Notes under the pieces: model-generated
Databases searched by the model: none
What the model saw: only the letters and a program-made list of their open reading frames with translations
Told to the model about the DNA's origin: nothing
Part shown: positions 1,984-61,045 of the stretch, one piece after another
How positions within the stretch are numbered: the first letter of the stretch is position 1
Layout of the letters: each line of letters begins with the position of its first letter
Program-made: the position numbers and the translations under genes
Assembly (NCBI RefSeq): GCF_029227855.1
Contig: NZ_CP074356.1
Reading direction: 5' to 3' (one strand)
DNA length: 64,000 bases
Source of the DNA: Escherichia coli
GTDB taxonomy: Bacteria > Pseudomonadota > Gammaproteobacteria > Enterobacterales > Enterobacteriaceae

Positions 1984-2012
1984 AAAAAAGCGCCTTTAGG
2001 GCGCTTTTTTAC
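1984..2012. terminator. Palindromic rho-independent terminator (distal copy)
   Basis: aaaaaaGCGCCtttagGGCGCtttttt: GC stem flanked by A-run and T-run, so it can act in both directions; exact second copy at 2140-2168. Confidence 0.6.
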
Positions 2013-2014
2013 AT

Positions 2015-2139
2015 TGGTGGGTCGTGCAGGATGACTCGCTTCGCTCGCCCTACGGGCCGTCGCCGCGAGCGGCTCCGTTATTTCGCTGCGCTCAACTCGA
2101 ACCTGCTGCAGGTTCGAATCTTTGAGTATCGCAGATAGT
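2015..2139 (-). repeat. tRNA-Lys 3'-end fragment plus spacer between the two terminator copies
   Basis: Begins with tggtgggtcgtgcagga (the first 17 nt of the minus-strand tRNA-Lys genes) then diverges; also contains tcgaacctgc. Related fragments at 2404 and 2897. Confidence 0.5.
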
Positions 2140-2168
2140 AAAAAAGCGCCTTTAGGGCGCTTTTTTAC
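2140..2168 (-). terminator. Rho-independent terminator immediately downstream of the last tRNA-Lys gene
   Basis: Same palindrome as 1984-2012, starting 3 nt after the tRNA 3' end on the transcribed (minus) strand. Confidence 0.7.
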
Positions 2169-2170
2169 AT

Positions 2171-2246
2171 TGGTGGGTCGTGCAGGATTCGAACCTGCGA
2201 CCAATTGATTAAAAGTCAACTGCTCTACCAACTGAGCTAACGACCC
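2171..2246 (-). tRNA. lysQ: tRNA-Lys (UUU anticodon)
   Basis: 76 nt exact match to the canonical E. coli tRNA-Lys gene sequence (reverse complement GGGTCGTTAGCTCAGTTGGTAGAGCAGTTGACTTTTAATCAATTGGTCGCAGGTTCGAATCCTGCACGACCCACCA); symbol assigned by position in the cluster. Confidence 0.95.
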
Positions 2247-2279
2247 CTTGCGGGATTATGCTGCTTTAATCATTCAGGA

Positions 2280-2355
2280 TGGTGGGTCGTGCAGGATTCG
2301 AACCTGCGACCAATTGATTAAAAGTCAACTGCTCTACCAACTGAGCTAACGACCC
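2280..2355 (-). tRNA. lysZ: tRNA-Lys (UUU anticodon)
   Basis: Identical 76 nt tRNA-Lys sequence; symbol by cluster order. Confidence 0.95.
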
Positions 2356-2403
2356 ATACGGGTGTTACCTGAAAGATTTCTACTCGGAACCAATCTTTAA
2401 AAT

Positions 2404-2501
2404 TGGTGGGTCGTGCAGGATGACTCGCTTCGCTCGCCCTACGGGCCGTTGCTGGCGCAACGTTATCCTTCACGCTTAACATCTGAGTTTGATGTTAAAA
2501 T
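2404..2501 (-). repeat. Inter-tRNA spacer repeat containing a tRNA-Lys 3' fragment
   Basis: tggtgggtcgtgcaggatgactcgcttcgctcgccctacgggccgttgctggcgcaacgttatccttcacg; near-identical copy at 2897-2996. Confidence 0.5.
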
Positions 2502-2577
2502 TGGTGGGTCGTGCAGGATTCGAACCTGCGACCAATTGATTAAAAGTCAACTGCTCTACCAACTGAGCTAACGACCC
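2502..2577 (-). tRNA. lysY: tRNA-Lys (UUU anticodon)
   Basis: Identical 76 nt tRNA-Lys sequence; symbol by cluster order. Confidence 0.95.
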
Positions 2578-2580
2578 GAG

Positions 2581-2656
2581 TGGTGGGTGATGACGGGATC
2601 GAACCGCCGACCCCCTCCTTGTAAGGGAGGTGCTCTCCCAGCTGAGCTAATCACCC
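2581..2656 (-). tRNA. valZ: tRNA-Val (UAC anticodon)
   Basis: 76 nt match to E. coli tRNA-Val (reverse complement GGGTGATTAGCTCAGCTGGGAGAGCACCTCCCTTACAAGGAGGGGGTCGGCGGTTCGATCCCGTCATCACCCACCA). Confidence 0.95.
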
Positions 2657-2707
2657 GATACTGCGCTGGATACTACAAACTACTTCCACCGAACCCACCG
2701 TAATTAG

Positions 2708-2783
2708 TGGTGGGTCGTGCAGGATTCGAACCTGCGACCAATTGATTAAAAGTCAACTGCTCTACCAACTGAGCTAACGACCC
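2708..2783 (-). tRNA. lysW: tRNA-Lys (UUU anticodon)
   Basis: Identical 76 nt tRNA-Lys sequence; symbol by cluster order. Confidence 0.95.
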
Positions 2784-2785
2784 GG

Positions 2786-2861
2786 TGGTGGGTGATGACG
2801 GGATCGAACCGCCGACCCCCTCCTTGTAAGGGAGGTGCTCTCCCAGCTGAGCTAATCACCC
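2786..2861 (-). tRNA. valT: tRNA-Val (UAC anticodon)
   Basis: Identical 76 nt tRNA-Val sequence, 2 nt after the preceding tRNA-Lys. Confidence 0.95.
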
Positions 2862-2896
2862 GATACTACGCTGGATACTACAACTAACTAGGTTAG

Positions 2897-2996
2897 TGGT
2901 GGGTCGTGCAGGATGACTCGACTTCGTCTCGCCCTTCGGGCCGTTGCTGACGCAACGTTATCCTTCACGTTTTACTACCGCTTCCACCTTAGCGAT
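2897..2996 (-). repeat. Inter-tRNA spacer repeat containing a tRNA-Lys 3' fragment
   Basis: Starts tggtgggtcgtgcagga then ...ccgttgctgacgcaacgttatccttcacg, near-identical to 2404-2501. Confidence 0.5.
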
Positions 2997-3072
2997 TGGT
3001 GGGTCGTGCAGGATTCGAACCTGCGACCAATTGATTAAAAGTCAACTGCTCTACCAACTGAGCTAACGACCC
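2997..3072 (-). tRNA. lysT: tRNA-Lys (UUU anticodon), first gene of the cluster
   Basis: Identical 76 nt tRNA-Lys sequence; promoter region lies between 3073 and cpoB. Confidence 0.95.
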
Positions 3073-3236
3073 ACTTTTTCGTTGCTTTCGGTTTGTTTGA
3101 TATCCCGTGGCAACGGCGGCATATATTACTGATTTCAGACTTGAGCGCAACAAAAATTTCGATGTAGATCACTCAACTGCTTATGATTCGCACGACACGA
3201 CCAGAAATAATGCGACTTCTGGTCGTGTGTTATGCA

Positions 3237-6018: not shown

Positions 6019-7329
6019 TTACGGTTTGAAGTCCAATGGCGCGTTTTTGAACACTTCATATACTGCCTGGCTTGGTGGTTTCGGGATCTTCGCAAGTTTA
6101 GCTGCTGCCAACGCAGCCTGACAAAGTGCGGGATCGCCACCTTCAGGTTTGATATCCAGTAACATACCATCGGGTGCCAGTTTTATGCGCAGCGTACAGG
6201 TTTTGCCTGCATAGGACGATGCGTCATAGAACTTACTTTCGATAGCAGATTTAATCTGCCCGGCATAGTTATTGATATCGGCCCCTGATGCGCCATTGTT
6301 TTTAGTATTACCACTCCCGGCAGGCGAAGCATTGTTCCCTTTCGCCCCTCCCCCCGTTTTCGGTGCATTCTTACCAGAGCTTAGCTCACCGAAAATATCA
6401 TCTGCCTCTGCGGCAGCTTTTGCTGCAGCGGCTTTTTCAGCTGCTGCTTTTGCAGCTGCTGCTTTTGCAGCTGCCGCTTTTTTGTCTGCGGCGGCTTTTT
6501 CTGCCGCTGCTTTCTTATCAGCTGCTGCCTTTTCAGCAGCTGCCTTTTCAGCAGCTGCCTTTTCAGCAGCCGCTTTTTCTGCTGCTTTTTTGTCGGCTGC
6601 AGCTTTCTCTGCTGCCACTTTCTTATCAGCTGCAGCCTTTTCAGCAGCCGCTTTCTTCTCAGCTTCTGCCTTGGCTTTTTCAGCAGCTTCAGTTGCCGCT
6701 TTCTTTCTTGCTTCAGCTGCAGCTGCTTCTGCCGCTTCCGCTTTCTTCTTCAGTGCCGCAGCGGCTGCCTCGGCTTTTTTCTGCGCTTCGGCTGCGGCTT
6801 TGGCGGCTTCTGCTTCTGCTTTTTTCTTCGCGTCTGCAGCCGCTTTCTTCGCAGCTTCTTCCGCAGCTTTAGCATCCGCTTCAGCCTTCGCTTTAGCATC
6901 TTCCGCCGCTTTCGCTGCCGCTTCTTCCGCTTGCTTCTGCTTTAACTCGGCCTGTTTTGCGGCTTCTTCAGCCTGCTTTTTCTGTTCCTGAGCAGCTAAC
7001 CGCTCTTTCTCAAGTTGCTTCAGGCGTTCCTGTTCAGCCGCTTGTTTCTCACGCAGTTCTTCAGCAGCCTGCTGTTCCTTCATCTTGCGCTGCTCATCAG
7101 AACGCTTCGCGCTTGATTCCTGGCTTTGCATGCGTTTGTACTGCTCAACTACCGCACCTGAATCAACCATGACAGCGTCGATGGATGAACCACCGCCGCC
7201 TCCGGCTGAAGCTTCTATATTCTCATCGAACGAACTCCAGATCAGCGCCGCAAATAAGATGACATGCAGCACTGCTGAAATAATTATCGCCCGCTTGAGC
7301 TTGTCGTTTTGTTCGGTTGCCTTTGACAC
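6019..7329 (-). CDS. tolA: Tol-Pal system protein TolA
   Basis: N-terminal TM anchor, long Ala/Lys/Glu-rich helical domain II, globular C-terminal domain III; 436 aa here. Confidence 0.95.
   Translation of the reverse strand: MSKATEQNDKLKRAIIISAVLHVILFAALIWSSFDENIEASAGGGGGSSIDAVMVDSGAVVEQYKRMQSQESSAKRSDEQRKMKEQQAAEELREKQAAEQERLKQLEKERLAAQEQKKQAEEAAKQAELKQKQAEEAAAKAAEDAKAKAEADAKAAEEAAKKAAADAKKKAEAEAAKAAAEAQKKAEAAAAALKKKAEAAEAAAAEARKKAATEAAEKAKAEAEKKAAAEKAAADKKVAAEKAAADKKAAEKAAAEKAAAEKAAAEKAAADKKAAAEKAAADKKAAAAKAAAAKAAAEKAAAAKAAAEADDIFGELSSGKNAPKTGGGAKGNNASPAGSGNTKNNGASGADINNYAGQIKSAIESKFYDASSYAGKTCTLRIKLAPDGMLLDIKPEGGDPALCQAALAAAKLAKIPKPPSQAVYEVFKNAPLDFKP
6400..6960 (-). repeat. Degenerate tandem repeats encoding the Ala/Lys/Glu-rich TolA domain II
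   Basis: Reiterated gcagc(t/c)gc...ttttcagc units visible on the plus strand, encoding (K/E)AAAEKAAAD-type repeats. Confidence 0.7.
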
Positions 7330-12950: not shown

Positions 12951-13018
12951 TTTGCAAGTTAGTTTTTCTATAGCCGAGTACGCTCAGCGCCTCGCTTGAT
13001 TACAATGAGGTTGCTGCT

Positions 13019-13963
13019 ATGAGTCCTGATAATATCAGTTCTGCTGTCAATCGCTTCTCAGGTTGGCCATCTAATGATCCTCTAAAAACAGATAAAGAAT
13101 CAATGACATCACCCATGACTGTGCAGGTAATAAAGATGATTGCCGCCATCCTTGACCCACATCGGATAGTCGTTGGAATCGATACACTTTATACAACGCA
13201 GCGCGAAACATTTACCTCAGAGAGTCAACAGCTCATTGAATCAGCATTGCAAACACTTCATGTGATGAATTTAAATAACCTGGAAACAAATCTCGATGAG
13301 GAAGGTCACTATCTGGCTTTTGGATATAACGTTGACACTCCTGACAGAATAACCGTTTCTGCTTATAATGAAAAAAAGCCTGGCTGCTATGGCCAATGTC
13401 TTTTAATACAGGATGACGAAACAGACTTATTTAACCTGATAAAAGTTAAAATTTTTGAAGCCAGGCATAATTATGTCGCTCAATTGATGAGCGATCCGGA
13501 ATTTATGTTCAAATTTAGTTATAGCGCTCAACAAAATAGATTAGAACCTCATCTTCTGGTTCCCACTTATTTCCCTCTAAAAACAAACGAACCGGTTACG
13601 CAAGAGGATGTACTGTTACTTTATCGTTTCTTTAAAATGGATGGTGATTTTAATATATTAACATCAGATGAATACATGAGTATCATGACACCTCTAATGA
13701 AGTGTGAGCGTAGCATCCACGACCACAACAGGTATGTGACGGGCAAAGATACCCTTCTTCTGGACTATCCTCCTTCTGGTAACCAGATATATTTCCATAT
13801 TTTTCCTGACGAATCAGCAACACTAGTCCTTTATTTTTCAAACAATGACATTGAATGTTTCGTCTTTGAAAGAGATATTCCGAGCCAGTATCGCTTTTTC
13901 AAAATGTTTACCAATCTGGCACTGGTTATTGATCAGTTAACCGATGCCAATCAAATACTTTAA
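13019..13963 (+). CDS. Hypothetical protein, AT-rich, no recognisable family
   Basis: 314 aa ORF, soluble, no motif I can recognise; codon usage and base composition unlike flanking core genes. Confidence 0.6.
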   Translation: MSPDNISSAVNRFSGWPSNDPLKTDKESMTSPMTVQVIKMIAAILDPHRIVVGIDTLYTTQRETFTSESQQLIESALQTLHVMNLNNLETNLDEEGHYLAFGYNVDTPDRITVSAYNEKKPGCYGQCLLIQDDETDLFNLIKVKIFEARHNYVAQLMSDPEFMFKFSYSAQQNRLEPHLLVPTYFPLKTNEPVTQEDVLLLYRFFKMDGDFNILTSDEYMSIMTPLMKCERSIHDHNRYVTGKDTLLLDYPPSGNQIYFHIFPDESATLVLYFSNNDIECFVFERDIPSQYRFFKMFTNLALVIDQLTDANQIL

Positions 13964-14043
13964 TTTTTATATATTCCCTGTGGCAAATATTGCTAAACAA
14001 TGCCCGGGGATTAATTTTTATTACTCACGGAAAGATTTAAATA

Positions 14044-14466
14044 ATGATCCCATCTCAAATCTCTTTCAACACCCTTCCTGTCAATGCAACATACGCTTCA
14101 GAGACAACAGTTGACACACAAAAATTCTCTGACATCCTCTACTCAGCGGGGTGTTCCCTAAAGGATCTGGCTTATTTGAGCAGATGTCTGGCATCAATAC
14201 ATCCGACTATCGCCAAAAACATTTATGAAACAGAAAATCTCAGCGATCAAAAATTACTACATATTGATTGCCGTAGTACAAATGAAATCAAGATAAATAT
14301 CTTTTTTGGTCGACAACGAGAAGGATTAATTGAAATTAGTTCTGACACAGTCATTTTTTCGATACTGTCTTCATTGATTGACTCCACCATTTCTAAATTT
14401 CAACACCAAAACCCCGTTAACGGTTCTGTAAATCCTGACCTATTGTATGAGGATTATACTGATTAA
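14044..14466 (+). CDS. Hypothetical protein, AT-rich, no recognisable family
   Basis: 140 aa ORF 80 bp downstream of the 314 aa ORF, same strand; likely co-transcribed. Confidence 0.55.
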   Translation: MIPSQISFNTLPVNATYASETTVDTQKFSDILYSAGCSLKDLAYLSRCLASIHPTIAKNIYETENLSDQKLLHIDCRSTNEIKINIFFGRQREGLIEISSDTVIFSILSSLIDSTISKFQHQNPVNGSVNPDLLYEDYTD

Positions 14467-15013
14467 ATCCCTCCTGTCGCGAAAAATGGCCTGCGTTATT
14501 GCCAGACGTAATAAAACTTTTGATTAACGTTTCTCGTACTGGTAGCACCCTCATGTACTTTTCTTTTTTACGAAAAATCAAAAGAGCTAACAAAGGTCAT
14601 AATTCGCATGAATCATTAATTATTTGTTATTTTCAACATTATTTTTACATTAAGCAGAGATGAATTGCAGTGAAATTCGACTTAACTTTTATGAAATGCA
14701 TTTACTCATGGCTAAAGCCACGTCACAAAAATGCAAATTAGAAGTTGATCACAATTATCTCAATACATCAAATCAAGTTAATTTTAAAAATTTAACATTC
14801 ATGACATCAGTTGACATAACACACTGAATTAAAATGAGAATTTGAAAACACACTTTAAACAATCATTTCCCGAAAGACATTTTGAAAATAGATCAATTGC
14901 AACATTACGGTCAGATAAAGACACTCCTGTGATATTAAACCTGTGCCGTTATGAACGGCCATAAATACGACGTGTGTAACTTATTTTACTCTCTGTCTTA
15001 CAAAGGATTACCC

Positions 15014-15463
15014 ATGAAGAAAGCAACACTTGTGATTGGCGTTATTGGCGCGGACTGCCATGCAGTAGGCAATAAAGTTCTGGACCGCGTTTTTAGCAAC
15101 CATGGCTTCAGAGTCATTAATCTGGGCGTAATGGTCAGCCAGGACGAATATATTGATGCTGCCATTGAAACTGGTGCTGACGCGATTGTCGTCTCCTCTA
15201 TCTATGGGCATGGCGATATCGACTGTCTGGACATGCGCGAACGCTGCATCGAGCGTGGACTGGGGGACATCCTGCTCTATGTGGGCGGTAACCTGGTGGT
15301 CGGAAAACATGACTTCGCTGACGTGGAAACCAAATTCAAAGAGATGGGATTTGATCGCGTCTTTGCCCCAAGTCATGACTTAGAAGATGTTTGTCAGCTG
15401 ATGGCCCACGATATCAACCAACGTCATGACGTTGATACTCGTATTCTTGAAGAGGCAATCTGA
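15014..15463 (+). CDS. glmS: Glutamate mutase sigma (S) subunit, B12-binding
   Basis: [21 protein letters not shown]: the DxHxxG cobalamin-binding motif of methylaspartate mutase S; AGGA RBS 7 nt upstream; start chosen at internal ATG of the track ORF. Symbol follows clostridial glutamate mutase usage, not glucosamine-6-P synthase. Confidence 0.85.
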
Positions 15464-16851
15464 TGCAAATCGTCTCTGTCGATATTGGATCGACGTGGAC
15501 CAAAGCAGCCCTCTTCGCCCGGGAGGGGGACGCGTTAACGTTGGTTAACCACGTACTGACCCCAACCACCCCCCATCATCTGGCGAAGGGGTTTTTCTCC
15601 AGTCTGAACCTGGTGTTAAACGTAGATGATGCCCTCCCCCTGTTTAACAGCGGTGAGGTTGCATTGAAGTATTCCTCCTCTGCCAAAGGTGGGCTGGCGG
15701 TTGCCGCAATGGGATTGGTGCCTTCTATCACCCTGGAAACCGCGAAAGTAACCGCTCACTCTGCGGGGGCTAAAATTGCGCAATATTACGCCTACAAGCT
15801 GAACCGCCGTGATATCCAGGCACTGGAAGAAACGCAGCCCGATATTCTCTTGTTCACCGGCGGCACCGACGGCGGAGAAGAAAGCTACGGCCTGAATAAC
15901 GCCCGTGTGCTGGCAGAATCCAAACTCGACTGCGCCATTATTTATGCCGGAAACCGGGATATTCAGGACAAGGTGCAGGAGATCCTAGGGCATAAAGACC
16001 TGACCATCGTCGACAACGTTCTGCCCGATCTTGACCATCCGAACCCTTTAGCTGCACGCCAGGCTATCTGCGACATATTCCTTAAACGCATCGTTAAAGG
16101 GAAAGGGCTGGATGTCGTTGTTGATAAAACAGGCGAAGAACCAATGCCGACACCGTGGACAGTCTTTGAACTGGTTAAGGCAATCAGTAATGTCGATCAC
16201 AGCTGGAAAGAGTTCATGCTGATCGACATGGGCGGCGCAACCACCGATGTCTATTCCGCCTGTGCCAACACGCTCTCGCCCGACACCGTTTTACACGGCG
16301 TACCGGAACCCTTCGTGAAACGGACGGTGGAAGGCGATCTGGGAATGCGCGTCTCGGCAATGGTGGTTGGTGAAAGTGCGAAAGAGTTAGTCAATGTGAA
16401 TTTTGCTCAGCAACCCGCACAGCTGGACGCTTTTTATCATTACCTCCGTCATCTAGTCGCTCATCCCGACTACTTACCCGCGAATTCAGAAGAAAAATAT
16501 TTCGATACCGTCCTGGCCGGACTGTGTGTGGGTTATGCCACCGAAAGACATGCGGGCACCAAAAAAGAGGTCTGCACCTGCGTCGGCAATGTCGATTTAC
16601 AGATGGGACGTGACCTGACAACCGTGCGTAAAGTCGTCGGATCCGGCGGATGGCTCTCGCGTGCCAGTCAGTTCGATATGCATCACTGGTTGAAATACCG
16701 CAAGTTAAACGACGACGGTAAACGCATTCTCTTACCGACCGAATTTGAATATTACCGCGATTCCCGGGGGCTATTACCATTGCTGGCAAACGTCGCCAGA
16801 GTCGATCCGCTGGCCGCCGCGCGCACCAGTATTCAATGCTTAACCCTATAA
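15463..16851 (+). CDS. glmL: Glutamate mutase L component (MutL/GlmL reactivase-like protein)
   Basis: 462 aa ORF between S and E subunits as in clostridial operons; ATGA overlap with the S subunit. Confidence 0.75.
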   Translation: MQIVSVDIGSTWTKAALFAREGDALTLVNHVLTPTTPHHLAKGFFSSLNLVLNVDDALPLFNSGEVALKYSSSAKGGLAVAAMGLVPSITLETAKVTAHSAGAKIAQYYAYKLNRRDIQALEETQPDILLFTGGTDGGEESYGLNNARVLAESKLDCAIIYAGNRDIQDKVQEILGHKDLTIVDNVLPDLDHPNPLAARQAICDIFLKRIVKGKGLDVVVDKTGEEPMPTPWTVFELVKAISNVDHSWKEFMLIDMGGATTDVYSACANTLSPDTVLHGVPEPFVKRTVEGDLGMRVSAMVVGESAKELVNVNFAQQPAQLDAFYHYLRHLVAHPDYLPANSEEKYFDTVLAGLCVGYATERHAGTKKEVCTCVGNVDLQMGRDLTTVRKVVGSGGWLSRASQFDMHHWLKYRKLNDDGKRILLPTEFEYYRDSRGLLPLLANVARVDPLAAARTSIQCLTL

Positions 16852-16869
16852 CAATTAAGGCTGCAATCA

Positions 16870-18315
16870 ATGGAACTTCGAAATAAGAAATTAACCCATG
16901 ACGAATTCATGACCGAGCGGCAACAGGTACTGAAAACCTGGGAAACCGGCAAGGATGTTGAAAACTTTGAAGATGGCGTTAAATACCAACAAACCATTCC
17001 TGAGCATAAACGCTTCTCTCTTGCGCTGTTGAAAGCAGACAAGGAAGGTAAAACCCTTAGCCAACCGCGCGCAGGTGTGGCGCTGATGGACGAACACATC
17101 GAACTACTGAAAACACTACAAGAAGAGTGCGATCTGCTGCCGAGCACTATCGATGCATATACCCGTCTGAATCGGTACGAAGAAGCGGCTGTAGGGATTA
17201 AAAAATCCATCGAAGCCGGAACCTCTAAACTGAACGGTTTGCCGGTAGTTAACCATGGCGTCGCAGCTTGCCGTCGCCTCACCGAAACCCTGCAAAAACC
17301 GCTACAGATCCGCCACGGCACGCCAGATGCGCGTCTGCTGGCTGAAATCTCGATGTCCAGCGGCTTTACCAGTTACGAAGGCGGCGGCATTTCCTACAAC
17401 ATTCCGTATGCCAAACGCGTAACGCTGGAAAAATCGATCCGCGACTGGCAGTACTGCGACCGTTTAATGGGGATGTATGAAGAACACGGGATCCGCATCA
17501 ACCGCGAACCGTTTGGCCCACTAACAGGTACGCTGATCCCGCCGTTTATCTCGCACTCTATCGCGATAATCGAAGGCTTGCTGGCGCTGGAACAGGGTGT
17601 GAAATCTATCACCGTTGGTTATGGACAGGTCGGCAGCCTGACGCAGGATGTTGCGGCGATCCAGTCTCTGCGTGAACTTGCACACGAATATTTTCAGAGC
17701 TATGGCTATACCGACTATGAATTAAGTACCGTGTTTCACCAGTGGATGGGCGGCTTTCCGGAAGACGAATCGAAAGCGTTCGCTATTATCTCCTGGGGCG
17801 CAGCCGTCGCGGGGATGTCTGGTGCCACCAAAGTCATCACCAAAAGCCCGCACGAAGCCTGGGGTATCCCGACTGCCGCTGCCAACATTCAGGGGCTGAA
17901 AGCCTCCCGCCAGATGCTCAACATGGTCAACGAGCAGAAATTCCCGCCGTGCCCTGCGGTTGAACTGGAAATTGAACTGATTAAGAGCGAGGTTCGCGCG
18001 GTACTGAATAAAGTGTTCGAACTGGGTAATGGTGATATTGCGCGCGGTACGGTGCTGGCATTTGAAGCGGGCGTACTGGATGTGCCGTTTGCGCCAGCCG
18101 CCTGCAACGCGGGCAAAATTCTTCCGGTCCGTGACAACACCGGCGCGATACGCGTACTGGAAGCCGGAGCCGTTCCATTGCCAAAAGATATTCTCGACCT
18201 CCACCACGATTACGTTGCTGAACGCGCACGCTTTGAAGGACGCCAACCGACATTCCAGATGGTTGTAGATGACATCAATGCTGTATCCCACAGTAAATTA
18301 ATAGGAAGACCATAA
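16870..18315 (+). CDS. glmE: Glutamate mutase epsilon (E) catalytic subunit
   Basis: 481 aa, size and gene order match methylaspartate mutase E. Confidence 0.8.
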   Translation: MELRNKKLTHDEFMTERQQVLKTWETGKDVENFEDGVKYQQTIPEHKRFSLALLKADKEGKTLSQPRAGVALMDEHIELLKTLQEECDLLPSTIDAYTRLNRYEEAAVGIKKSIEAGTSKLNGLPVVNHGVAACRRLTETLQKPLQIRHGTPDARLLAEISMSSGFTSYEGGGISYNIPYAKRVTLEKSIRDWQYCDRLMGMYEEHGIRINREPFGPLTGTLIPPFISHSIAIIEGLLALEQGVKSITVGYGQVGSLTQDVAAIQSLRELAHEYFQSYGYTDYELSTVFHQWMGGFPEDESKAFAIISWGAAVAGMSGATKVITKSPHEAWGIPTAAANIQGLKASRQMLNMVNEQKFPPCPAVELEIELIKSEVRAVLNKVFELGNGDIARGTVLAFEAGVLDVPFAPAACNAGKILPVRDNTGAIRVLEAGAVPLPKDILDLHHDYVAERARFEGRQPTFQMVVDDINAVSHSKLIGRP

Positions 18316-19556
18316 TGAAAATAAAACAGGCCCTTTTTACCGCTGGCTACTCCTCATTCTATTTCGATGACCAGCAGGCGATAAAAAACGGAGCGGGTCA
18401 CGACGGTTTTTTTTATACCGGGGAGCCAGTAACACAGGGGTTTAACGCCGTACGTCAGGCCGGGGAGTGCGTATCGGTACAGTTGATTCTGGAAAACGGC
18501 GCGGTCGCCGTAGGTGACTGTGCTGCCGTACAGTATTCCGGGGCAGGCGGTCGCGATCCACTGTTCCTCGCGGAGCACTTTATTCCGTTCCTCAACGACC
18601 ATATCAAGCCATTACTGGTAGGCCGCGATGTGGATGTTTTCCTGCCGAATGCCCGTTTCTTCGACAAATTGCGTATTGACGGCAACTTGCTGCATACCGC
18701 CGTGCGCTACGGATTATCACAGGCTCTGCTTGATGCTACCGCGCTGGCAACCGGCCGTCTGAAAACTGAAGTGATCTGTGATGAATGGCAGTTGCCACGC
18801 GTGGCGGAATCCATTCCATTATTTGGTCAGAGCGGGGACGATCGATATATCGCCGTCGATAAGATGATCCTTAAGGGCATCGACGTGCTGCCCCATGCGC
18901 TGATTAATAACGTCGAAGAGAAGCTGGGCTTTAAAGGTGAAAAACTGCGCGAATATGTCCGCTGGTTGTCGGATCGCATTCTGAGCAAGCGCACCAGCGC
19001 ACGCTACCACCCAATCCTGCACATCGATGTATACGGCACTATCGGTCTGATCTTCGATATGGATCCGCTTCGCTGTGCGCAATACATCGCCAGCCTGGAA
19101 AAAGAAGCGCAAGGCCTGCCGCTCTACATTGAAGGGCCGGTCGATGCCGGTAACAAGCCCGATCAAATTCGCCTGCTGACCGCGATTACCAAAGAGCTGA
19201 CGCGCCTCGGTTCCGGCGTGAAACTAGTGGCCGATGAATGGTGTAACACCTACCAGGATATTGTTGATTTCACAGATGCCGCCAGTTGCCACATGGTGCA
19301 AATCAAAACCCCGGATCTGGGCAGTATTCACAACATCGTCGATGCAGTTCTTTATTGCAACAGCCACAGCATGGAAGCGTACCAGGGCGGCACCTGCAAT
19401 GAAACTGATGTCAGTGCCCGCACCTGTGTCCACGTCGCCCTTGCCGCTCGCCCCATGCGTATGCTGGTAAAACCAGGGATGGGCTTTGACGAAGGCCTCG
19501 ATATCGTCTTCAACGAAATGAATCGTACTATCGCGCTGTTGCAGGCTAAGGATTAA
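18315..19556 (+). CDS. mal: Methylaspartate ammonia-lyase (beta-methylaspartase)
   Basis: 413 aa; N-terminus MKIKQALFTAGYSSFYFDDQQAIKNGAGHDGF matches the enolase-superfamily methylaspartase N-terminus; start overlaps the glmE stop. Confidence 0.85.
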   Translation: MKIKQALFTAGYSSFYFDDQQAIKNGAGHDGFFYTGEPVTQGFNAVRQAGECVSVQLILENGAVAVGDCAAVQYSGAGGRDPLFLAEHFIPFLNDHIKPLLVGRDVDVFLPNARFFDKLRIDGNLLHTAVRYGLSQALLDATALATGRLKTEVICDEWQLPRVAESIPLFGQSGDDRYIAVDKMILKGIDVLPHALINNVEEKLGFKGEKLREYVRWLSDRILSKRTSARYHPILHIDVYGTIGLIFDMDPLRCAQYIASLEKEAQGLPLYIEGPVDAGNKPDQIRLLTAITKELTRLGSGVKLVADEWCNTYQDIVDFTDAASCHMVQIKTPDLGSIHNIVDAVLYCNSHSMEAYQGGTCNETDVSARTCVHVALAARPMRMLVKPGMGFDEGLDIVFNEMNRTIALLQAKD

Positions 19557-19559
19557 CAA

Positions 19560-20930
19560 ATGGCTCGTTCTTTTAAAGTCTTATCGCCAACGGCAATCCT
19601 CGGGTATGGATTCCCGGAAGAGAGCTTCCGCAAAGCGATGGCAGAATCGCCCGATCTGATCGCCGTTGATGCAGGCTCTTCCGATCCTGGCCCCCACTAC
19701 CTCGGGGCGGGCAAACCGTTTACCGATCGCGCAGGGGTCAAGCGCGATCTGCGCTATATGATCACCGCAGGCGTGCAAAATAATATACCGGTGGTGATCG
19801 GAACGGCCGGCGGTTCTGGTGCCGCTCCACACCTGGAGTGGTGCCGAGAAATAATTCATGAGATTGCCCGGGAAGAGCACCTCTCGTTCTCGATGGCGTT
19901 GATCCCGGCAGACGTTGACAAAGCCATCGTCCACCAGGCGCTGGATAACGGCAAAATCACGGCGCTGGAGTTTGTCCCGCCGTTAACCCACGACGCGATT
20001 GACGAAAGTACGTATATCGTTGCGCAAATGGGCATCGAACCCTTCCAGCGGGCGCTGAAAGAAGGCGCGCAAGTGGTGCCGGGCGGGCGCGCTTACGACC
20101 CGGCCTGCTTTGCTGCGCTTCCGATCATGCAAGGCTTTGATGAAGGTCTGGCGCTTCATTGTGGGAAAATCCTTGAATGCGCGGCAATCGCCGCAACGCC
20201 CGGCTCAGGCTCTGACTGTGCGATGGGCATCATTGATGACAACGGCTTTACGCTGAAGACATTTAATCCGAAGCGTAAATTTACCGAAACGTCAGCAGCT
20301 GCACACACACTGTATGAGAAATCCGATCCCTACTTCCTGCCTGGACCTGGCGGCGTGTTGAACCTGAAAGGCTGCACATTTAAAGCGGTCAATGACAGCG
20401 AAGTGTACGTCAGCGGTTCTAAGCATGAAGAAACGCCGTATTCCCTGAAACTGGAAGGTGCGCGACGGGTGGGCTTCCGCTGTCTGACCATCGCAGGAAC
20501 GCGCGACCCGATCATGATCGCCGGGATCGATAAAATCATCGATGAAGTCAAAACCAGCGTTTCGCGTAACCTGTCGCTCGACGATGACAGCATTCACATC
20601 AATTTCCACCTGTACGGCAAAAACGGGGTGATGGGCGACCATGAACCGATGCAAACTGCCGGGCATGAGCTGGGGATTGTCCTAGATGTAGTTGCGCCGA
20701 CCCAGGAAATTGCCAACAGCGTTTGCTCGCTGGTGCGCTCTACTATGCTGCACTACGGCTATGAAAACCGCATCGCTACCGCAGGCAACCTGGCGTTCCC
20801 GTTCTCCCCTTCTGATATCCAGGGCGGGCCGGTATACGAATTTTCCATATATCACCTGATTGAAGCCAACGACGCTCTGCGTTTTGATTTCCATATTGAA
20901 CAGGTGACGCCAGAAGGAGTTCAGGCATGA
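19560..20930 (+). CDS. Conserved protein of unknown function (possibly DUF1446/AtuA-like)
   Basis: 456 aa, starts 4 nt after mal; family assignment is from memory of N-terminal pattern only. Confidence 0.5.
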   Translation: MARSFKVLSPTAILGYGFPEESFRKAMAESPDLIAVDAGSSDPGPHYLGAGKPFTDRAGVKRDLRYMITAGVQNNIPVVIGTAGGSGAAPHLEWCREIIHEIAREEHLSFSMALIPADVDKAIVHQALDNGKITALEFVPPLTHDAIDESTYIVAQMGIEPFQRALKEGAQVVPGGRAYDPACFAALPIMQGFDEGLALHCGKILECAAIAATPGSGSDCAMGIIDDNGFTLKTFNPKRKFTETSAAAHTLYEKSDPYFLPGPGGVLNLKGCTFKAVNDSEVYVSGSKHEETPYSLKLEGARRVGFRCLTIAGTRDPIMIAGIDKIIDEVKTSVSRNLSLDDDSIHINFHLYGKNGVMGDHEPMQTAGHELGIVLDVVAPTQEIANSVCSLVRSTMLHYGYENRIATAGNLAFPFSPSDIQGGPVYEFSIYHLIEANDALRFDFHIEQVTPEGVQA

Positions 20931-21244
20931 AACAGTCAATTGTCTCACTGGCGCAAGTCATTCGTTCGAAAAATGCCGGACCTTACGAACTGGTTTTAGA
21001 TATTTTATTTAAAACGAAAGAAAACTATGAGCGAGTTAAATCATCAGGGCAATTAACCCCAGAACTGATTGCGCGCTTATATCATGTTGAACCTGACTTT
21101 ATTCACCGTATTGTCTGGTTTGATCCTTCTAACGCAGTAAAAATCGTCATGCCACGAGATATTATCTCCGGGAATGTAGGTGACAATGATGTCTATGGTG
21201 CACAGCAACATGCACCTTTATTAAATATGAGTTTCGATTTGTAA
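20927..21244 (+). CDS. Small conserved protein of unknown function (possibly DUF4387-like partner)
   Basis: 105 aa, ATGA overlap with the preceding gene. Confidence 0.5.
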   Translation: MKQSIVSLAQVIRSKNAGPYELVLDILFKTKENYERVKSSGQLTPELIARLYHVEPDFIHRIVWFDPSNAVKIVMPRDIISGNVGDNDVYGAQQHAPLLNMSFDL

Positions 21245-21327
21245 AAATCCGAATACTTTTAGCCAACTGACATCCCGTCACTTATTGCAGTTCAACACTT
21301 CAGCTATTTGTAAGGTTGTAATAGCAG

Positions 21328-21359
21328 GTAGATGCCTGAATCTCTATTCAGGCATCTAC
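21328..21359 (+). terminator. Perfect 14 bp inverted repeat; candidate terminator or operator between operon and transporter gene
   Basis: GTAGATGCCTGAAT-ctct-ATTCAGGCATCTAC followed by T-rich ttctcctgattctgattt. Confidence 0.55.
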
Positions 21360-21404
21360 TTCTCCTGATTCTGATTTATCGCCGTGCACCTGATGGAGGA
21401 AAAA

Positions 21405-22685
21405 ATGAAGAAAATAAGTTTAACCACGATGATTCTTTTGGCGCTGGTACTTGGAATGATTATCGGCGTAGTGCTCAATAACACTGCTTCACCGGAAACC
21501 GCAAAACTCTATGCGCAAGAAATATCGATATTCACGACGATTTTCTTACGACTGATAAAAATGATTATCGCTCCGTTAGTGGTCTCTACCCTGGTGGTAG
21601 GTATAGCTAAAATGGGCGATGCCAAAGCCCTTGGTCGTATTTTTTCTAAAACACTCTTTTTATTTATTTGCGCCTCATTGCTGTCAATTGCCTTAGGCTT
21701 GATAACAGTAAATTTCTTCATGCCAGGCACAGGAATTAATTTTGTTGCACACGGAGCCGAAACCACCGGAGTGGTCGCGTCAGAACCCTTTACGCTAAAA
21801 GTATTTATTTCGCATGCTTTCCCCACCAGCATTGTCGATGCCATGGCGCACAATGAAATTTTGCAAATCGTGGTGTTCTCAATTTTCCTCGGCTGTAGCC
21901 TGACGGCGATTGGCGAGAAAGGCAGCGCCATCGTTCACGCCTTAGATTCGCTGGCACATGCCATGTTAAAGCTCACTGGCTACGTCATGCTCTTCGCTCC
22001 CCTGACCGTATTCGCTGCTATTTCAGCATTGATTGCTGAACGAGGACTGGCAGTTATGGTGAGCGCCGGGATCTTTATGGGTGAATTTTATTTCACCATG
22101 TTATTACTTTGGGTGCTGCTTATCGGTCTGGCCATCGTTTATGTTGGCCCCTGCATCAGACGCCTGACCCGCGCCCTTTCGGAACCCGCCCTGCTGGCAT
22201 TTACCACATCCAGTTCTGAAGCGGCTTTTCCGGGAACGCTTGAAAAACTGGAGCAATTTGGCGTTTCCCCAAAAATTGCCAGTTTTGTCTTACCCATTGG
22301 CTACTCATTTAATCTCGTTGGATCAATGGCCTACTGCTCCTTCGCCACAGTTTTCATCGCCCAGGCCTGCAATATCCATTTATCCATCGGTGAGCAAATC
22401 ACCATGCTGTTGATCCTGATGTTGACCTCGAAAGGAATGGCTGGCGTACCACGCGCCTCAATGGTGGTTATCGCCGCCACGCTCAACCAGTTCAATATTC
22501 CGGAAGCGGGGCTGATCTTGCTGATGGGCGTTGATCCGTTCCTTGATATGGGGCGTTCAGCGACAAACGTCATGAGCAACGCAATGGGCGCTGCGATGGT
22601 GAGTCGGTGGGAAGGCGAACATTTCGGCGAGGGCTGTCGGGGTAAAGCATTAAAACCCAATGAATCGAACGTTGCTCTGCCCTGA
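21405..22685 (+). CDS. Dicarboxylate/amino acid:cation symporter (GltP/DctA family), probable glutamate uptake
   Basis: About 426 aa polytopic protein; GGAGGA RBS 5 nt upstream of ATG 21405 (track ORF starts at an upstream GTG). Confidence 0.8.
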   Translation: MKKISLTTMILLALVLGMIIGVVLNNTASPETAKLYAQEISIFTTIFLRLIKMIIAPLVVSTLVVGIAKMGDAKALGRIFSKTLFLFICASLLSIALGLITVNFFMPGTGINFVAHGAETTGVVASEPFTLKVFISHAFPTSIVDAMAHNEILQIVVFSIFLGCSLTAIGEKGSAIVHALDSLAHAMLKLTGYVMLFAPLTVFAAISALIAERGLAVMVSAGIFMGEFYFTMLLLWVLLIGLAIVYVGPCIRRLTRALSEPALLAFTTSSSEAAFPGTLEKLEQFGVSPKIASFVLPIGYSFNLVGSMAYCSFATVFIAQACNIHLSIGEQITMLLILMLTSKGMAGVPRASMVVIAATLNQFNIPEAGLILLMGVDPFLDMGRSATNVMSNAMGAAMVSRWEGEHFGEGCRGKALKPNESNVALP

Positions 22686-22792
22686 GGGGGATCTTAAGCA
22701 ATCAGAAGCCAATGACTACGCATTTTTATAAGCCGGATCATGAAGTTAGACGGCAATTAAGTAAAACTAACGTTTAAGGTGAAAAGTGAAAT

Positions 22793-24445
22793 ATGTCCAA
22801 ACCATTTATCTGGCAAGAACCGTTTCTACAAAATAAAGACGGTACAGAATATACATTAATTAGCGATCAACATATTACAGTAACGGAATTAGACGGCGAA
22901 GAAGTAATAAAAATCGCTCCTGAAGCATTAACGCTGCTTGCCCGGCAGGCATTTTATGAAGCCTCTTTTTTCTTACGTTCCGCTCATTTGCAACAGGTCG
23001 CCAGCATTCTTAACGATCCGCAGGCCAGTAGTAATGATAAATACGTTGCGTTGCAGTTATTACGTAATGCTGAAGTCTCAGCAAAAGGGGTATTACCCAA
23101 CTGTCAGGATACCGGCACCGCAACTATTGTTGCCAGTAAAGGGCAACAGATATGGACGGGAGGTAACGACGCTGAAGCCTTAAGCAAAGGCATTTACACC
23201 ACTTTTCAGGAAAATAATCTGCGCTTTTCACAAAATGCGCCACTGGATATGTTTACCGAAGTCAATACGCAAACCAATCTCCCGGCGCAGATTGATATCA
23301 GCGCCGTCGCTGGTGATGAGTACCATTTTCTCTGTATTAATAAAGGGGGCGGCTCTGCCAATAAAGCCGCGCTTTATCAGGAAACCAAATCCCTATTGCA
23401 ACCAGAAAAACTGACCGCATTTTTAATCGAAAAAATGAAATCGCTGGGCACCGCTGCCTGCCCGCCTTACCACATCGCCTTTGTCGTCGGAGGACTTTCA
23501 GCCGATCAAACCTTAAAAGTTGCCAAGCTGGCCTCAACGAAATATTACGACAATTTGCCCACCAGCGGAAACGAGCAAGGACAAGCATTCCGTGATATTG
23601 AGCTGGAAAAAGTATTGCTCGAGGCCAGTCAGCAATTTGGTATTGGTGCGCAATTTGGGGGTAAATATTTCGCTCATGATATTCGCGTCATTCGTCTGCC
23701 GCGTCACGGTGGCTCTTGCCCGATAGCTATGGCGCTCTCCTGTTCTGCGGATCGCAATATCAAAGCAAAAATTAACAAGCACGGTATCTGGCTGGAAAAA
23801 CTCGAACACAATCCGGGGCAATATATTCCAGCCTCACTGCGGGAAGAAAATCACGCGCAACATGTACAGCTGGATCTAAACCGTCCGTTGCGTGACGTGA
23901 TGCAGGATCTCGCCAGATTACCGGTAGGCACCCGCGTGTCGTTAAGTGGTCCCATCGTAGTGGCGCGCGATATCGCCCACGCCAAAATAAAAGCGCGGCT
24001 GGATAGCGGCGAACCGATGCCGGATTACCTGAAGCATCATATTGTCTATTACGCTGGCCCGGCGAAAACACCGGAGAACATGGCCTGCGGTTCACTGGGT
24101 CCAACCACGGGCGGTCGAATGGACGGTTATGTCGATACCTTCCAGGCGGTTGGCGGCAGTCTGGTGATGTTATCGAAAGGTCACCGCAGCCAGCAGGTCA
24201 CCGATGCCTGTCACAAACATGGCGGCTTCAATCTGGGAAGTATTGGCGGTGCAGCTGCGTTACTGGCGCAAGAATATGTCAAAAGTCTGCGTTGCCTGGA
24301 ATACCCGGAGCTGGGTATGGAAGCGGTGTGGATGATGGAAGTGGAAAATCTGCCCGCATTCATCCTGGTAGATGATAAAGGCAATAATTTCTTTAGTCAG
24401 TTTGAGCAGCAACACCGCTGCGCCAGTTGCCCTGCGGGACATTAA
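22793..24445 (+). CDS. fumD: Class I (Fe-S) fumarate hydratase family enzyme, probable mesaconase
   Basis: 550 aa; N-terminus closely parallels FumA ([31 protein letters not shown]); linkage to glutamate mutase/methylaspartase as described for the E. coli O157:H7 mesaconase FumD. Confidence 0.8.
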
Positions 24446-24454
24446 GGAAAATGA

Positions 24455-25057
24455 ATGGAAGCGCGAATTTCAACTGAACGGCATGTGCAGCGCCAGCAGA
24501 AATTGAAGGAACAGGTCGATACGCGCATCGCGGCGGCGATAGAGAAAAAAGGGATTTTGATTGTTTTCACCGGCAATGGCAAAGGGAAATCCACTGCCGC
24601 GTTTGGTACTGTGACGCGCGCGGTGGGTCATGGCAAAACGGTGGGGGTTGCGCAGTACATCAAGGGGCAATGGGACAACGGCGAATACAACCTTCTCCAG
24701 CCGCTGGGGGTTGAGTTTCATATTATGGGAACCGGTTTTACCTGGGAGACACAGAACCGGCAAGCGGATATCGACGCGGCGAAAGAGGTCTGGTCGGAAA
24801 GCAAACGGATGCTGGCTGACAAGCGTTACGACTTAGTGGTGCTTGATGAGCTGACCTATATGCTGGCTTACCATTATCTGGATACCGAAGAAGTGATCGC
24901 TTCTCTGCAAAACCGCCCGGCACAACAAAGTGTCATTGTCACCGGACGCGGTTGCCACAGTCAGATATTAAAAATGGCGGATACGGTCAGCGAAATCCGC
25001 CCCGTCAAACATGCTTTTGATAACGGCATTCAGGCGCAGCCGGGTATCGACTGGTAA
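24455..25057 (+). CDS. ATP:cob(I)alamin adenosyltransferase (CobA/BtuR paralog)
   Basis: 200 aa; GILIVFTGNGKGKSTAAFG P-loop and strong collinearity with E. coli BtuR. Confidence 0.85.
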   Translation: MEARISTERHVQRQQKLKEQVDTRIAAAIEKKGILIVFTGNGKGKSTAAFGTVTRAVGHGKTVGVAQYIKGQWDNGEYNLLQPLGVEFHIMGTGFTWETQNRQADIDAAKEVWSESKRMLADKRYDLVVLDELTYMLAYHYLDTEEVIASLQNRPAQQSVIVTGRGCHSQILKMADTVSEIRPVKHAFDNGIQAQPGIDW

Positions 25058-48740: not shown

Positions 48741-48754
48741 TTAAGGAAATGAAA

Positions 48755-49487
48755 ATGACATTTATGAAAGGACTACCCCTTTTGTTGTTGGTTGCCAGTC
48801 TGTGCAGCCACGCTGCACTACAACCCGATCGCACTCGTATTGTGTTTAACGCTAATGATAAAGCTACCAGTCTGCGCGTGGATAATCGTAGCGATAAACT
48901 CCCCTACCTCGCTTATTCCTGGCTCGAAAATGAAAAAGGGGAGAAAAGCGACGATCTTCTGGTCGCCCTGCCACCGATACAACGTCTGGAACCGAAAGCA
49001 ACAACGCAGATGCGGATAGTCAAGCAAGCCTCGACCGCGAAATTACCGGGCGATCGCGAAACGCTATTTTTCTACAATATGCGTGAAATTCCTCCCTCCC
49101 CAGAAAAAAAACAGCGGCCATGCCGTTCTGCAGGTCGCCATCCAGAGTCGTATCAAGGTGTTCTGGAGACCGTCCGCGTTACGCAAGAAAGCAGGAGAAA
49201 AAGTCGAGCTACAGTTACAAGTCAGCCAGCAGGGCAATCAACTTAACTTAAAAAACCCGACCGGCTATTACCTGACAATCGCCTACTTGGGACGAAATGA
49301 GCAAGCTGTTCTCCCGGGCTTCAAAACCGTGATGGTTGCGCCTTTTAGTACAGTAATTACAAACACCGGAAGTTATAGCGGCAGTCAGTTTTATCTCGGT
49401 TATATGGATGATTACGGCGCGTTACGCATGACGACGCTCAATTGCAACGGACATTGCCGTTTACAAGCAGTGGAGGCGAAGAAATGA
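48755..49487 (+). pseudogene. ybgP: Fimbrial periplasmic chaperone (PapD-like) disrupted by a frameshift in an A8 homopolymer
   Basis: N-terminal half (MTFMKGLPLLLLVASLCSHA...FFYNMREIPPSPEK) is in one frame and the C-terminal half (NSGHAVLQVAIQSRIKVFWRP...) in the +1 frame; the switch maps to the run of eight A at 49104-49111. Seven A would give a continuous chaperone of about 240 aa. Confidence 0.75.
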
Positions 49488-50545
49488 GTACTGGCAAAGG
49501 ATTGTTGCTCGTCATCTGTCTGTTATTTCTGCCATTGAAGTCTGCGCTAGCGCTGAACTGCTATTTTGGTACTTCCGGCGGAACGGTAGAAAAATCGGAA
49601 GCGATTCAACCCTTTGCTGTGCCAGGTAATGCCAAACCCGGCGATAAGATCTGGGAATCTGACGATATTAAAATTCCCGTCTATTGTGACAACAATACCA
49701 ACGGCAACTTTGAAAGCGAACATGTCTACGCATGGGTAAACCCCTACCCGGGGGTACAGGATCGTTATTATCAACTCGGCGTGACATACAATGGTGTCGA
49801 TTACGATGCCAGTCTGGGGAAAAGCCGCATCGACACCAACCAGTGTATCGACAGTAAGAACATTAACATTTATACCCCTGAGCAGATTATCGCGATGGGC
49901 TGGCAGAACAAAATATGCTCGGGTGACCCCGCTAATATTCACATGTCGCGAACCTTTCTTGCTCGTATGCGGTTATACGTTAAGATTCGCGAAATACCGC
50001 CGCATGATTATCAAAGTACGCTTAGCGACTACATCGTCGTGCAATTTGATGGTGCCGGTAGCGTTAACGAAGACCCTACCGCCCAAAACCTGAAATACCA
50101 TATTACTGGTCTGGAAAACATTCGTGTACTGGATTGCAGCGTCAATTTTTCTATTTCACCAGAAACACAGGTGATTGATTTTGGTAAATTTAACCTGCTG
50201 GATATTCGCCGCCACACAATGTCGAAAACATTCAGTATTAAGACGACAAAATCACAAAATGACCAGTGCACCGACGGATTTAAGGTCAGCTCTTCGTTTT
50301 ATACCGAAGAAACATTGATTGAAGAGGATAAAGCACTGCTGATTGGTAATGGACTGAAGCTACGTTTGCTGGATGAAAATTCTTCACCCTATACTTTCAA
50401 CAAATACAGCGAATATGCTGATTTCACCAGCGATATGCTGATCTACGAAAAAACCTATACGGCTGAACTTTCGTCCATTCCCGGCACCCCCATCGAAGCG
50501 GGTCCCTTCGATACAGTGGTGCTTTTTAAGATTAACTATAACTAA
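49484..50545 (+). CDS. ybgO: Fimbrial adhesin-like tip protein
   Basis: 353 aa, signal peptide [23 protein letters not shown]; last gene of the fimbrial operon; GGAGG RBS. Confidence 0.8.
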
Positions 50546-59476: not shown

Positions 59477-60268
59477 TCAGGTAGTTTCTGTCCATGGCTG
59501 CCCTTTCCATTCAAACGTGAAATCAATAAGTTCATCAGGGACATCGCAAACAATGTGAAGACGGATTTCTTCTCTGCCGTGACTCTTTTCACTCATTGCG
59601 TAACTGCCATGCTCTGGATTATTTAATTCTTTCAGCGGAAACTTTTCCTCAAAGGCTTTATTTAGCCGCCCCTGGTTTCCTTTTACAGCGAATAAATAAT
59701 CACCGCCCTGTTTTTGTATCTTCTCTGCGATATCTTTCTGGCAACCCATCGCATCAGTTGTGATAATTTTTCCTTTAATATCCAACATGTTAAGAAGTTC
59801 AGGGATAGCTGTAATTTCATTGGATTTCTCATCCGTCCTGATCTGTCCGATGACCAGACTGTGCATTGTTGAGAACGAACTAATGACATGAATCGCTCCC
59901 CTGCGGCGACTCTAGTCATAAGAGTGCCGGAGCGTTTTTCCATCAATTGCAATGACGCCTTTATCATCTGAAGAATGGCAGTCACGCATCCAGTTAATAA
60001 AGCACTCGTGAAATTTTGCAGGACTGATACAGGATACAACTCTGGCAATGGTATCGTGAACAGGAATACCATTTTCAAAATCACCATATTGCTTCAAAAA
60101 ATCGAGATGTGTTTCCCCAAAATCCTCTATATCTTCCCAGCCTTCTGCACCAGAAATAACGGCACAAATAGTCAACAGTAGAATATCCGACAATTTATGT
60201 TCCACTTTCCAGGCTTGTCTGTAATCGGGGATAATAGAAATATGTTCCATCAATTTTTTAAGTTCCAT
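59477..60268 (-). pseudogene. H-repeat-associated (ISAs1-family) transposase interrupted by an in-frame amber codon and C-terminally truncated
   Basis: N-terminal segment [32 protein letters not shown]...[10 protein letters not shown], then TAG (complement of 59912-59914), then the same frame continues [40 protein letters not shown]...FEWKG and ends early. Both track ORFs 59912-60268 and 59477-59866 are in one frame. Confidence 0.8.
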
Positions 60269-60375
60269 TTTGTTCTCCTTAATTATGTAAGGAGTATTTG
60301 ATCATGTATAAGCAATAAAAAACAGCTTCAGGTAATGAGGAATATCTCAATTTTTAAACATAAAATGCGAATTAT

Positions 60376-60993
60376 TTAGTACAAAAAGTGTACTTCTGAT
60401 GATCTTTCCCTGTCCTTGGCACCATCATTTTTTGACGCTTCAAAAATACTACTACAAGTGAGTTTAGAAAACTCTTTTCCAGATAATTCTCCAGGTTGTA
60501 ATCCTCCGCCGCCAAAAATCCTACTCCCAGGATTTCCATACCTATTTAGAGCATATGAATAGCAATTATTTACGGCAAGATAATACGCATCTGAATTTAG
60601 TTCTCGATTGAATACTGGAGCAGGTTTATCAATTAAGCCCAGCGGATCAATAGAATAGGTTGGATGTATGGAAGCATATACATACTGATTCCACCCGCCT
60701 TCCAGCCCAATCGGATCCTGAGTGATATACCGCCCCTGCAGCGGGTCATAATAGCGGTGGCGGTTGTAATACAGGCCGGACTCCTCATCATACTGCTGCC
60801 CCGGCAGACGGATAAGCTGCTGCAGGTGCTGCGGGTTCTCTTCAGTCAGCAGGTTGTCCCATTCATCATATTCTGCGCACCATTCTGTTGCCCCGTCAGG
60901 GCTGATAAGCGTCAGCGGCAGGCCGCGATAGTCGCAGTGGTAGAGGTGGATTATTCGCAGTGATCTATATGCCAACGTCATCTTATTTTTCAT
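60376..60993 (-). CDS. Orphan Rhs C-terminal fragment (core-end homology plus distinct toxin tip)
   Basis: First about 100 aa ([82 protein letters not shown]) parallel the end of the main Rhs core at 62.0-62.3 kb; the remaining about 100 aa are unrelated to the main Rhs tip. Confidence 0.75.
60700..60970 (-). repeat. Rhs core 3'-end homology block (copy 1; partner at about 62020-62290)
   Basis: Nucleotide-level near-identity, e.g. gtgatataccgcccctgcagcgggtcataatagcggtggcggttgtaatacaggccggactcctcatcatactgctg at both loci. Confidence 0.8.
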
Positions 60994-61045
60994 CTACTCC
61001 AACGAGTAGACAAGTTTTTTATTAAACCATTTATACCTTTTACGA

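Follow-up and report, generated by a model that had tools for sequence, protein, structure and literature searches.

A 16-unit tolA allele of Escherichia coli, very probably a natural variant of a known intragenic tandem repeat

Length polymorphism of the repeats within tolA is already known and was dissected experimentally in 2012. An earlier survey of the repeat by Zhou, Vanoirbeek, Aertsen and Michiels reportedly appeared in the same year in Res Microbiol 163:316. The experimental work on this intragenic tandem repeat (Zhou, Michiels, Aertsen, PLoS One 2012, PMC3477136) counted 13 units in E. coli MG1655 and, in its citation of Res Microbiol 163:316, states that unit numbers in 234 isolates ranged naturally from 8 to 16 and that 66% of the isolates had 13. 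Chromosomal tolA variants with 2-39 units all kept function, the unit numbers tested being 2, 6, 8, 13, 26 and 39; an allele with 16 units was not among them. In the isogenic MG1655 variants, tolerance to deoxycholate increased with unit number, phage fd plated at 28-43% on every non-13 variant tested (2, 6, 8, 26 and 39 units), and tolerance to high salt at pH 5 fell for 26 and 39 units. Thirteen units were proposed as the overall optimum. Contractions of the tract arose at up to 6.9e-5, were RecA-dependent and were enhanced in a uvrD background, while expansions were not recovered experimentally (PMC3477136).

In other enterobacteria, the part of tolA that encodes domain II is likewise polymorphic and serves for MLVA typing, i.e., at locus SENTR1/SE-10 of Salmonella Enteritidis, a 45-bp repeat in tolA (PMC2430564), and at locus 53 of Klebsiella pneumoniae, which lies within tolA (PMC3948817). 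These VNTR loci are stable enough for typing and variable enough for discrimination. They differ from the E. coli tract in species and in the definition of the unit; a 45-bp (15-aa) super-unit is present in an E. coli allele of the S10EC type, which also encodes 436 aa, but is absent from the allele described here. A more distant parallel is domain II of TonB with its Pro-Glu and Pro-Lys repeats, which is also a spacer built of repeats that spans the periplasm and belongs to a force transducer coupled to a motor. It forms a polyproline-II rod, whereas that of TolA is an alpha-helix, and the two share no sequence similarity, so that the comparison concerns the working principle and not family membership. 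In TolA, domain II is a helix with a repeating Lys1-2-Ala3-4-(Glu/Asp) pattern, and proteins in which it has been exchanged or lengthened retain part of their function (PMC10666116). Among Proteobacteria its length ranges from 110 to 335 residues in TolA and from 40 to 245 in TonB (PMC12204202).

Here, we describe a tolA gene from a 64-kb stretch of E. coli DNA, which is called the window in the following. The gene is encoded on the minus strand and is organized as follows:

6019..7329, minus strand: tolA coding sequence, 436 aa plus stop, GTG start (ORF list, equivalog models, PF06519)
7228..7329, minus strand: domain I, N-terminal membrane anchor, aa 1-34 (translation, alignment, predicted helix 3-34)
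6379..7152, minus strand: domain II, long Ala/Lys/Glu-rich helical region, aa 60-317 (single-sequence AlphaFold2 model, composition)
6771..6942, minus strand: upstream repeats of period 24/12 bp, more degenerate, inside domain II (Tandem Repeats Finder, allele comparison)
6403..6651, minus strand: tolA tandem-repeat tract proper, aa 227-309 (codon listing, unit counts, Tandem Repeats Finder)
6526..6570, minus strand: perfect run of three GCTGCTGAAAAGGCA copies, AAAEK (unit listing, allele comparison)
6445..6474, minus strand: perfect run of two GCAGCTGCAAAAGCA copies, AAAAK (unit listing, allele comparison)
6313..6378, minus strand: flexible linker rich in Gly, Asn and Ser that joins domains II and III, about aa 318-339 (model, alignment)
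6028..6312, minus strand: domain III, TolA C-terminal globular domain, aa 340-434 (PF06519)

The identity of the open reading frame at 6019-7329 as tolA, the gene for the cell envelope integrity protein of the Tol-Pal system, is not in doubt. The encoded protein matches two TolA equivalog models over their full length, NF007065 (NCBIfam) with 559.3 bits at a cut-off of 213 and TIGR02794 with 312.5 bits at a cut-off of 59.45, and the Pfam profile for the TolA C-terminal domain, PF06519, aligns with aa 340-434 over positions 1-96 of 96 (E 2.1e-38). The gene resides between tolR and tolB in the order ybgC-tolQ-tolR-tolA-tolB-pal-cpoB. All ORFs of this operon correspond one-to-one to annotated genes of K-12 and of strain JNEC-KY178, and the latter has tolA annotated at the very place of the window ORF. 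The Ser-His-Leu-Ser motif with which the TolA anchor binds the motor (as defined in PMC10666116 and PMC12204202) is read as S18-H22-L29-S33 in the window translation (...IIISAVLHVILFAALIWSS...) and proved invariant in all alleles aligned. Alanine makes up 44% of domain II, and the 246 residues at aa 64-309 comprise 109 alanines, 52 lysines and 40 glutamates. The adjoining linker is devoid of secondary structure in the single-sequence AlphaFold2 model (pLDDT below 50) and is invariant among the alleles. Two plus-strand ORFs antisense to the tolA repeats, 6272-6991 (239 aa) and 6363-6872 (169 aa), were rejected as genes. Their products are low-complexity strings rich in Ala, Ser, Phe and Leu, the reading frames are by-products of a GCN-rich repeat read on the opposite strand, and related genomes carry no annotation there. 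At the other end of the operon, downstream of cpoB, window positions 2000-3100 contain seven Lys/Val tRNA genes and an 'RtT sRNA' feature, as judged by correspondence with JNEC-KY178. K-12 carries lysT-valT-lysW-valZ-lysY-lysZ-lysQ at this position, with a spacing and order that appear slightly different from JNEC-KY178.

Comparison with K-12 bears out what the earlier note had claimed, namely that degenerate tandem repeats at 6400-6960 code for domain II and that the protein of 436 aa is longer than the 421 aa of K-12 TolA. The tolA gene of K-12 MG1655 (b0739) is annotated with 1266 bp and thus encodes 421 aa. Tandem Repeats Finder reports overlapping arrays with periods of 15/30/33/18 at 6408-6664 and of 24/12 at 6771-6942, which match the region named in the note, and a codon-by-codon listing resolves the tract at 6403-6651 into 16 units, each in frame and 12, 15 or 18 bp long (AAAEK, AAADKK, AAEK or AAAAK). 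When the tract is split after every lysine run, the same way of counting yields 16 units for the window, 15 for JNEC-KY178 and 13 for K-12. K-12 therefore differs from the window in length as well as in repeat number. Our count for K-12 equals the published one (PMC3477136), and the 16 units of the window fall inside the natural range of 8-16 as that range is cited there.

At the protein level, the window allele is distinguished from K-12 by the exchanges A143E and A238V, an insertion of 10 aa and an insertion of 5 aa, all of which lie in the Ala/Lys/Glu repeats. The linker and domains I and III do not vary among the four alleles aligned, i.e., those of the window and K-12 and two others. The 10-aa insertion consists of two extra copies of GCTGCTGAAAAGGCA (AAAEK), which is present three times in the window and in JNEC-KY178 and once in K-12. 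The 5-aa insertion corresponds to a single additional copy of GCAGCTGCAAAAGCA (AAAAK), of which the window has two and both K-12 and JNEC-KY178 have one. All 15 additional residues are therefore whole in-frame units of the tract, and neither a frameshift nor a stop is present in the tract of the window tolA. The longest exact direct repeat measures 32 bp in the window tolA and 20 bp in that of K-12. When synonymous codons were shuffled and the protein was kept, the longest repeat averaged 16.8 bp (maximum 27), and when codon order was shuffled it averaged 13.9 bp (maximum 21); 32 bp was reached in 0 of 500 shuffles in either case. The repetition of the tolA DNA thus exceeds what is expected from an Ala/Lys/Glu-rich protein composition. 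Codon choice is identical among the duplicated units but differs in other AAAEK units of the window tolA. The added units are exact copies at the DNA level, and this pattern marks their duplication as recent.

The population context was derived from 5,426 complete RefSeq E. coli genomes, 5,425 of which yielded tolA. A tolA sequence identical to that of the window was not found among the 5,426 genomes, and neither was its arrangement of three AAAEK and two AAAAK copies combined with A143E and A238V. Note that this uniqueness rests only on the complete genomes: an exact look-up in a collection of 15 billion proteins returned the window TolA as absent, but did so as well for the K-12 control and nine other RefSeq alleles and was thus uninformative. 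The best match, with 98.9%, is tolA of JNEC-KY178, and the whole shortfall is due to one 15-base gap. The first 420 and the last 390 nt are free of SNPs, and the tract is otherwise identical. JNEC-KY178 is also the closest complete genome to the window in its entirety, with 20 SNPs and one indel over 64 kb. Three of the SNPs and the 15-bp tolA unit fall within positions 1-25000, the other 17 SNPs, without any gap, within 25001-64000. The single indel in this one comparison is hence the AAAAK unit of tolA, which is suggestive of a tract that may rearrange more often than the sequence around it.

Allele lengths were assessed in 59 full-length genes, which were sampled at even spacing along the ranking from the whole-gene search. 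The K-12 length of 1266 bp was found in 41 of these (about 69%), a length of 1311 bp in five (about 8%), and the remaining lengths spanned 1185 to 1299 bp; one gene of 1314 bp occurred among the best matches listed. The five genes of 1311 bp (S10EC type, WP_000030659.1) also encode 436 aa but reach this length via a different 15-aa insertion, AAEK-AAAEK-AAADKK. With these differently arranged alleles of the same size at hand, 436 aa is not an unusual length for TolA. Fifteen tolA alleles were fetched, all of which are intact annotated coding sequences of 394-437 aa with 9-16 units. A comparison across strains, as the earlier note had proposed for a check, covered 16 alleles and showed that they differ by whole repeat units, from 9 to 16, and keep the frame. 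Variation is not confined to the tract proper. The upstream repeats of period 24 also differ in length (+8 aa in MN06021, +2 aa in ATCC 8739), and in O157:H7-type alleles a deletion reaches upstream of unit 1. These figures are in agreement with those of the published survey in the form in which it is cited (69% with K-12 length here, 66% with 13 units there; 9-16 versus 8-16 units). The literature (PMC3477136), the MLVA loci and the sampled complete genomes are thus in accord with the note's statement that the region is a known site of strain variation.

We consider it very probable that the window tolA is a natural 16-unit allele of this known intragenic tandem repeat (VNTR). An artefact of assembly or consensus calling, affecting the extra 15-bp AAAAK unit or even the whole excess over K-12, is very unlikely. 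Suspicion could arise as the unit is the sole indel relative to the nearest genome over 64 kb and as the exact gene is absent from the 5,426 complete genomes, the best match being 98.9%. However, with a longest exact repeat of 32 bp, a tract of about 250 bp and mostly unique units, ordinary reads span the tract, and for the same reason the sequence lends no support to the assembly trouble which the earlier note had associated with the repeats. Moreover, exactly one unit has been inserted and the frame is preserved, the 30-bp insertion is common to JNEC-KY178, and the tract is documented to change naturally by whole units (PMC3477136). The AAAAK doublet itself occurs in identical DNA form in the independent complete genome of strain A16 and in a phase-shifted version in KFu014 and EC17CM2, each time on another tolA SNP background, which speaks against an artefact and for natural events that have recurred. 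The presence of the doublet in other lineages, together with the mosaic nature of tolA alleles, in which unit arrangements and flanking SNPs are combined differently across strains, could in turn be taken to indicate that a tolA segment was imported horizontally by gene conversion from another E. coli lineage and not duplicated in situ. We regard this as highly improbable, because the window tolA equals that of JNEC-KY178 apart from one 15-bp unit, only 3 SNPs separate the two in 25 kb of flanks, and the carriers of the doublet are without the AAAEK triplet and show 2-3 SNP differences within the first 420 nt. One local duplication explains the allele more parsimoniously.

Another question is whether the allele with 16 units represents an adaptive contingency state, e.g., in response to bile salts or filamentous phage, instead of the outcome of near-neutral drift of a mutable tract. 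The increase of deoxycholate tolerance with unit number and the plating of phage fd at 28-43% on all non-13 alleles (PMC3477136) are in favour of adaptation, as are two successive expansions in the window lineage and the position of 16 units at the top of the natural range in its cited form. On the other hand, alleles with 13 units predominate (66-69%) and have been suggested as the overall optimum (PMC3477136), and the expansions tested, with 26 and 39 units, were far larger than the three additional units found here. An adaptive state appears unlikely. We are even more doubtful about a directional trend, in which the very recent natural step from 15 to 16 units, on top of that from 13 to 15 in the same lineage, would reflect selection toward longer TolA rods. 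Were such a trend real, bile-salt stress or pressure by filamentous phages or colicins would be possible drivers, and it would involve expansions, which the laboratory study did not recover.

In the reading that we prefer, a natural variant of the repeat, the allele arose as follows. Domain I anchors TolA in the inner membrane together with the proton-driven TolQR motor, which TolA couples to the outer membrane; the long Ala/Lys/Glu helix of domain II crosses the periplasm, and domain III binds TolB and other partners. When near-identical units in the DNA misalign, either by replication slippage or by RecA-dependent unequal recombination, the latter having been shown experimentally for the tract, whole units are gained or lost, the frame is kept and the helix changes in steps of 4-6 residues. 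A first step, common to the window lineage and JNEC-KY178, converted one AAAEK unit into three. In a later, more recent step, specific to the window strain, one AAAAK unit became two, the net outcome being 15 added residues that are predicted to be helical. In this respect the window allele differs from the experimental study, which saw contractions only (PMC3477136), since it was reached by expansions.

The consequences for the protein were considered with the help of single-sequence AlphaFold2 models, which were used for secondary structure only (mean pLDDT about 70, pTM about 0.25). For the window TolA, helices are predicted at residues 3-34, 60-215 and 221-317, and the inserted residues are predicted to be helical with a pLDDT of about 80-87. 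The single helix break is located at 216-220 in the window protein and at 201-203 in K-12, and the C-terminal helix of domain II spans 97-99 residues in both models; the positions of the break provide only a hint. With a helical rise of 1.5 Angstrom per residue, the 15 additional residues would add about 22 Angstrom of helix contour, which corresponds to about 6% of domain II. A published AlphaFold model presents TolA domain II as a helical hairpin about 220 Angstrom long that is proposed to extend on energisation, and CpoB/YbgF binds at TolA residues 280-313 (PMC8928145). The confidence of our own models is too low to choose between hairpin and extended geometry. A longer domain II may alter the reach across the periplasm. 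The corresponding claim of the earlier note, a changed periplasmic span, is therefore reasonable as far as the 15 predicted-helical residues and their approximately 22 Angstrom are concerned, while hairpin models blur the geometry. A change of 15 residues is expected to be tolerated, because domain II comprises 110-335 residues among Proteobacteria and lengthened chimeras are partly functional.

The window TolA should be fully functional, and any phenotypic effect would be at most a modest shift in envelope properties, as in the published isogenic series. The only new element is one further tolA allele that has not been seen among complete genomes, and its importance beyond annotation is little. 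An allele at the top of the range may slightly shift bile-salt tolerance and the susceptibility to filamentous phages and group A colicins. The tract is useful as a fine-scale typing marker, as it provides the sole length difference in 64 kb to the nearest sequenced relative. Differences in tolA length between assemblies should be taken neither as errors nor as signs of drastic functional change.

Several further features of the window deserve mention. By correspondence with JNEC-KY178, positions 13000-25000, beyond cydA, contain a methylaspartate pathway cluster with genes for the mutase S and E subunits, the accessory protein GlmL, methylaspartate ammonia-lyase, an AtuA-family protein, a DUF4387 protein, a dicarboxylate symporter and a class I fumarate hydratase as well as cobO. 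Window positions 1-25000 are covered to at least 80% in only 876 of 5,425 E. coli genomes, and the K-12 annotation around cydA, in the stretch fetched, is free of genes of the methylaspartate cluster. Taken together, this gives the cluster the appearance of a variable accessory island. At about 48750-49490 (L017 23755-24487), a fimbrial chaperone gene of a ybgO/P/Q/D-type operon is annotated as frameshifted in JNEC-KY178. The right end of the window, at about 59500-64000 (L017 34501-39456), comprises, again by correspondence with JNEC-KY178, the core protein gene of an RHS element together with an RHS C-terminal fragment and a degraded transposase of the ISAs1 family (ybfD). Inside this RHS region, a segment of 271 bp is repeated at about 90% identity, with copies at 60688-60958 and 62008-62278.
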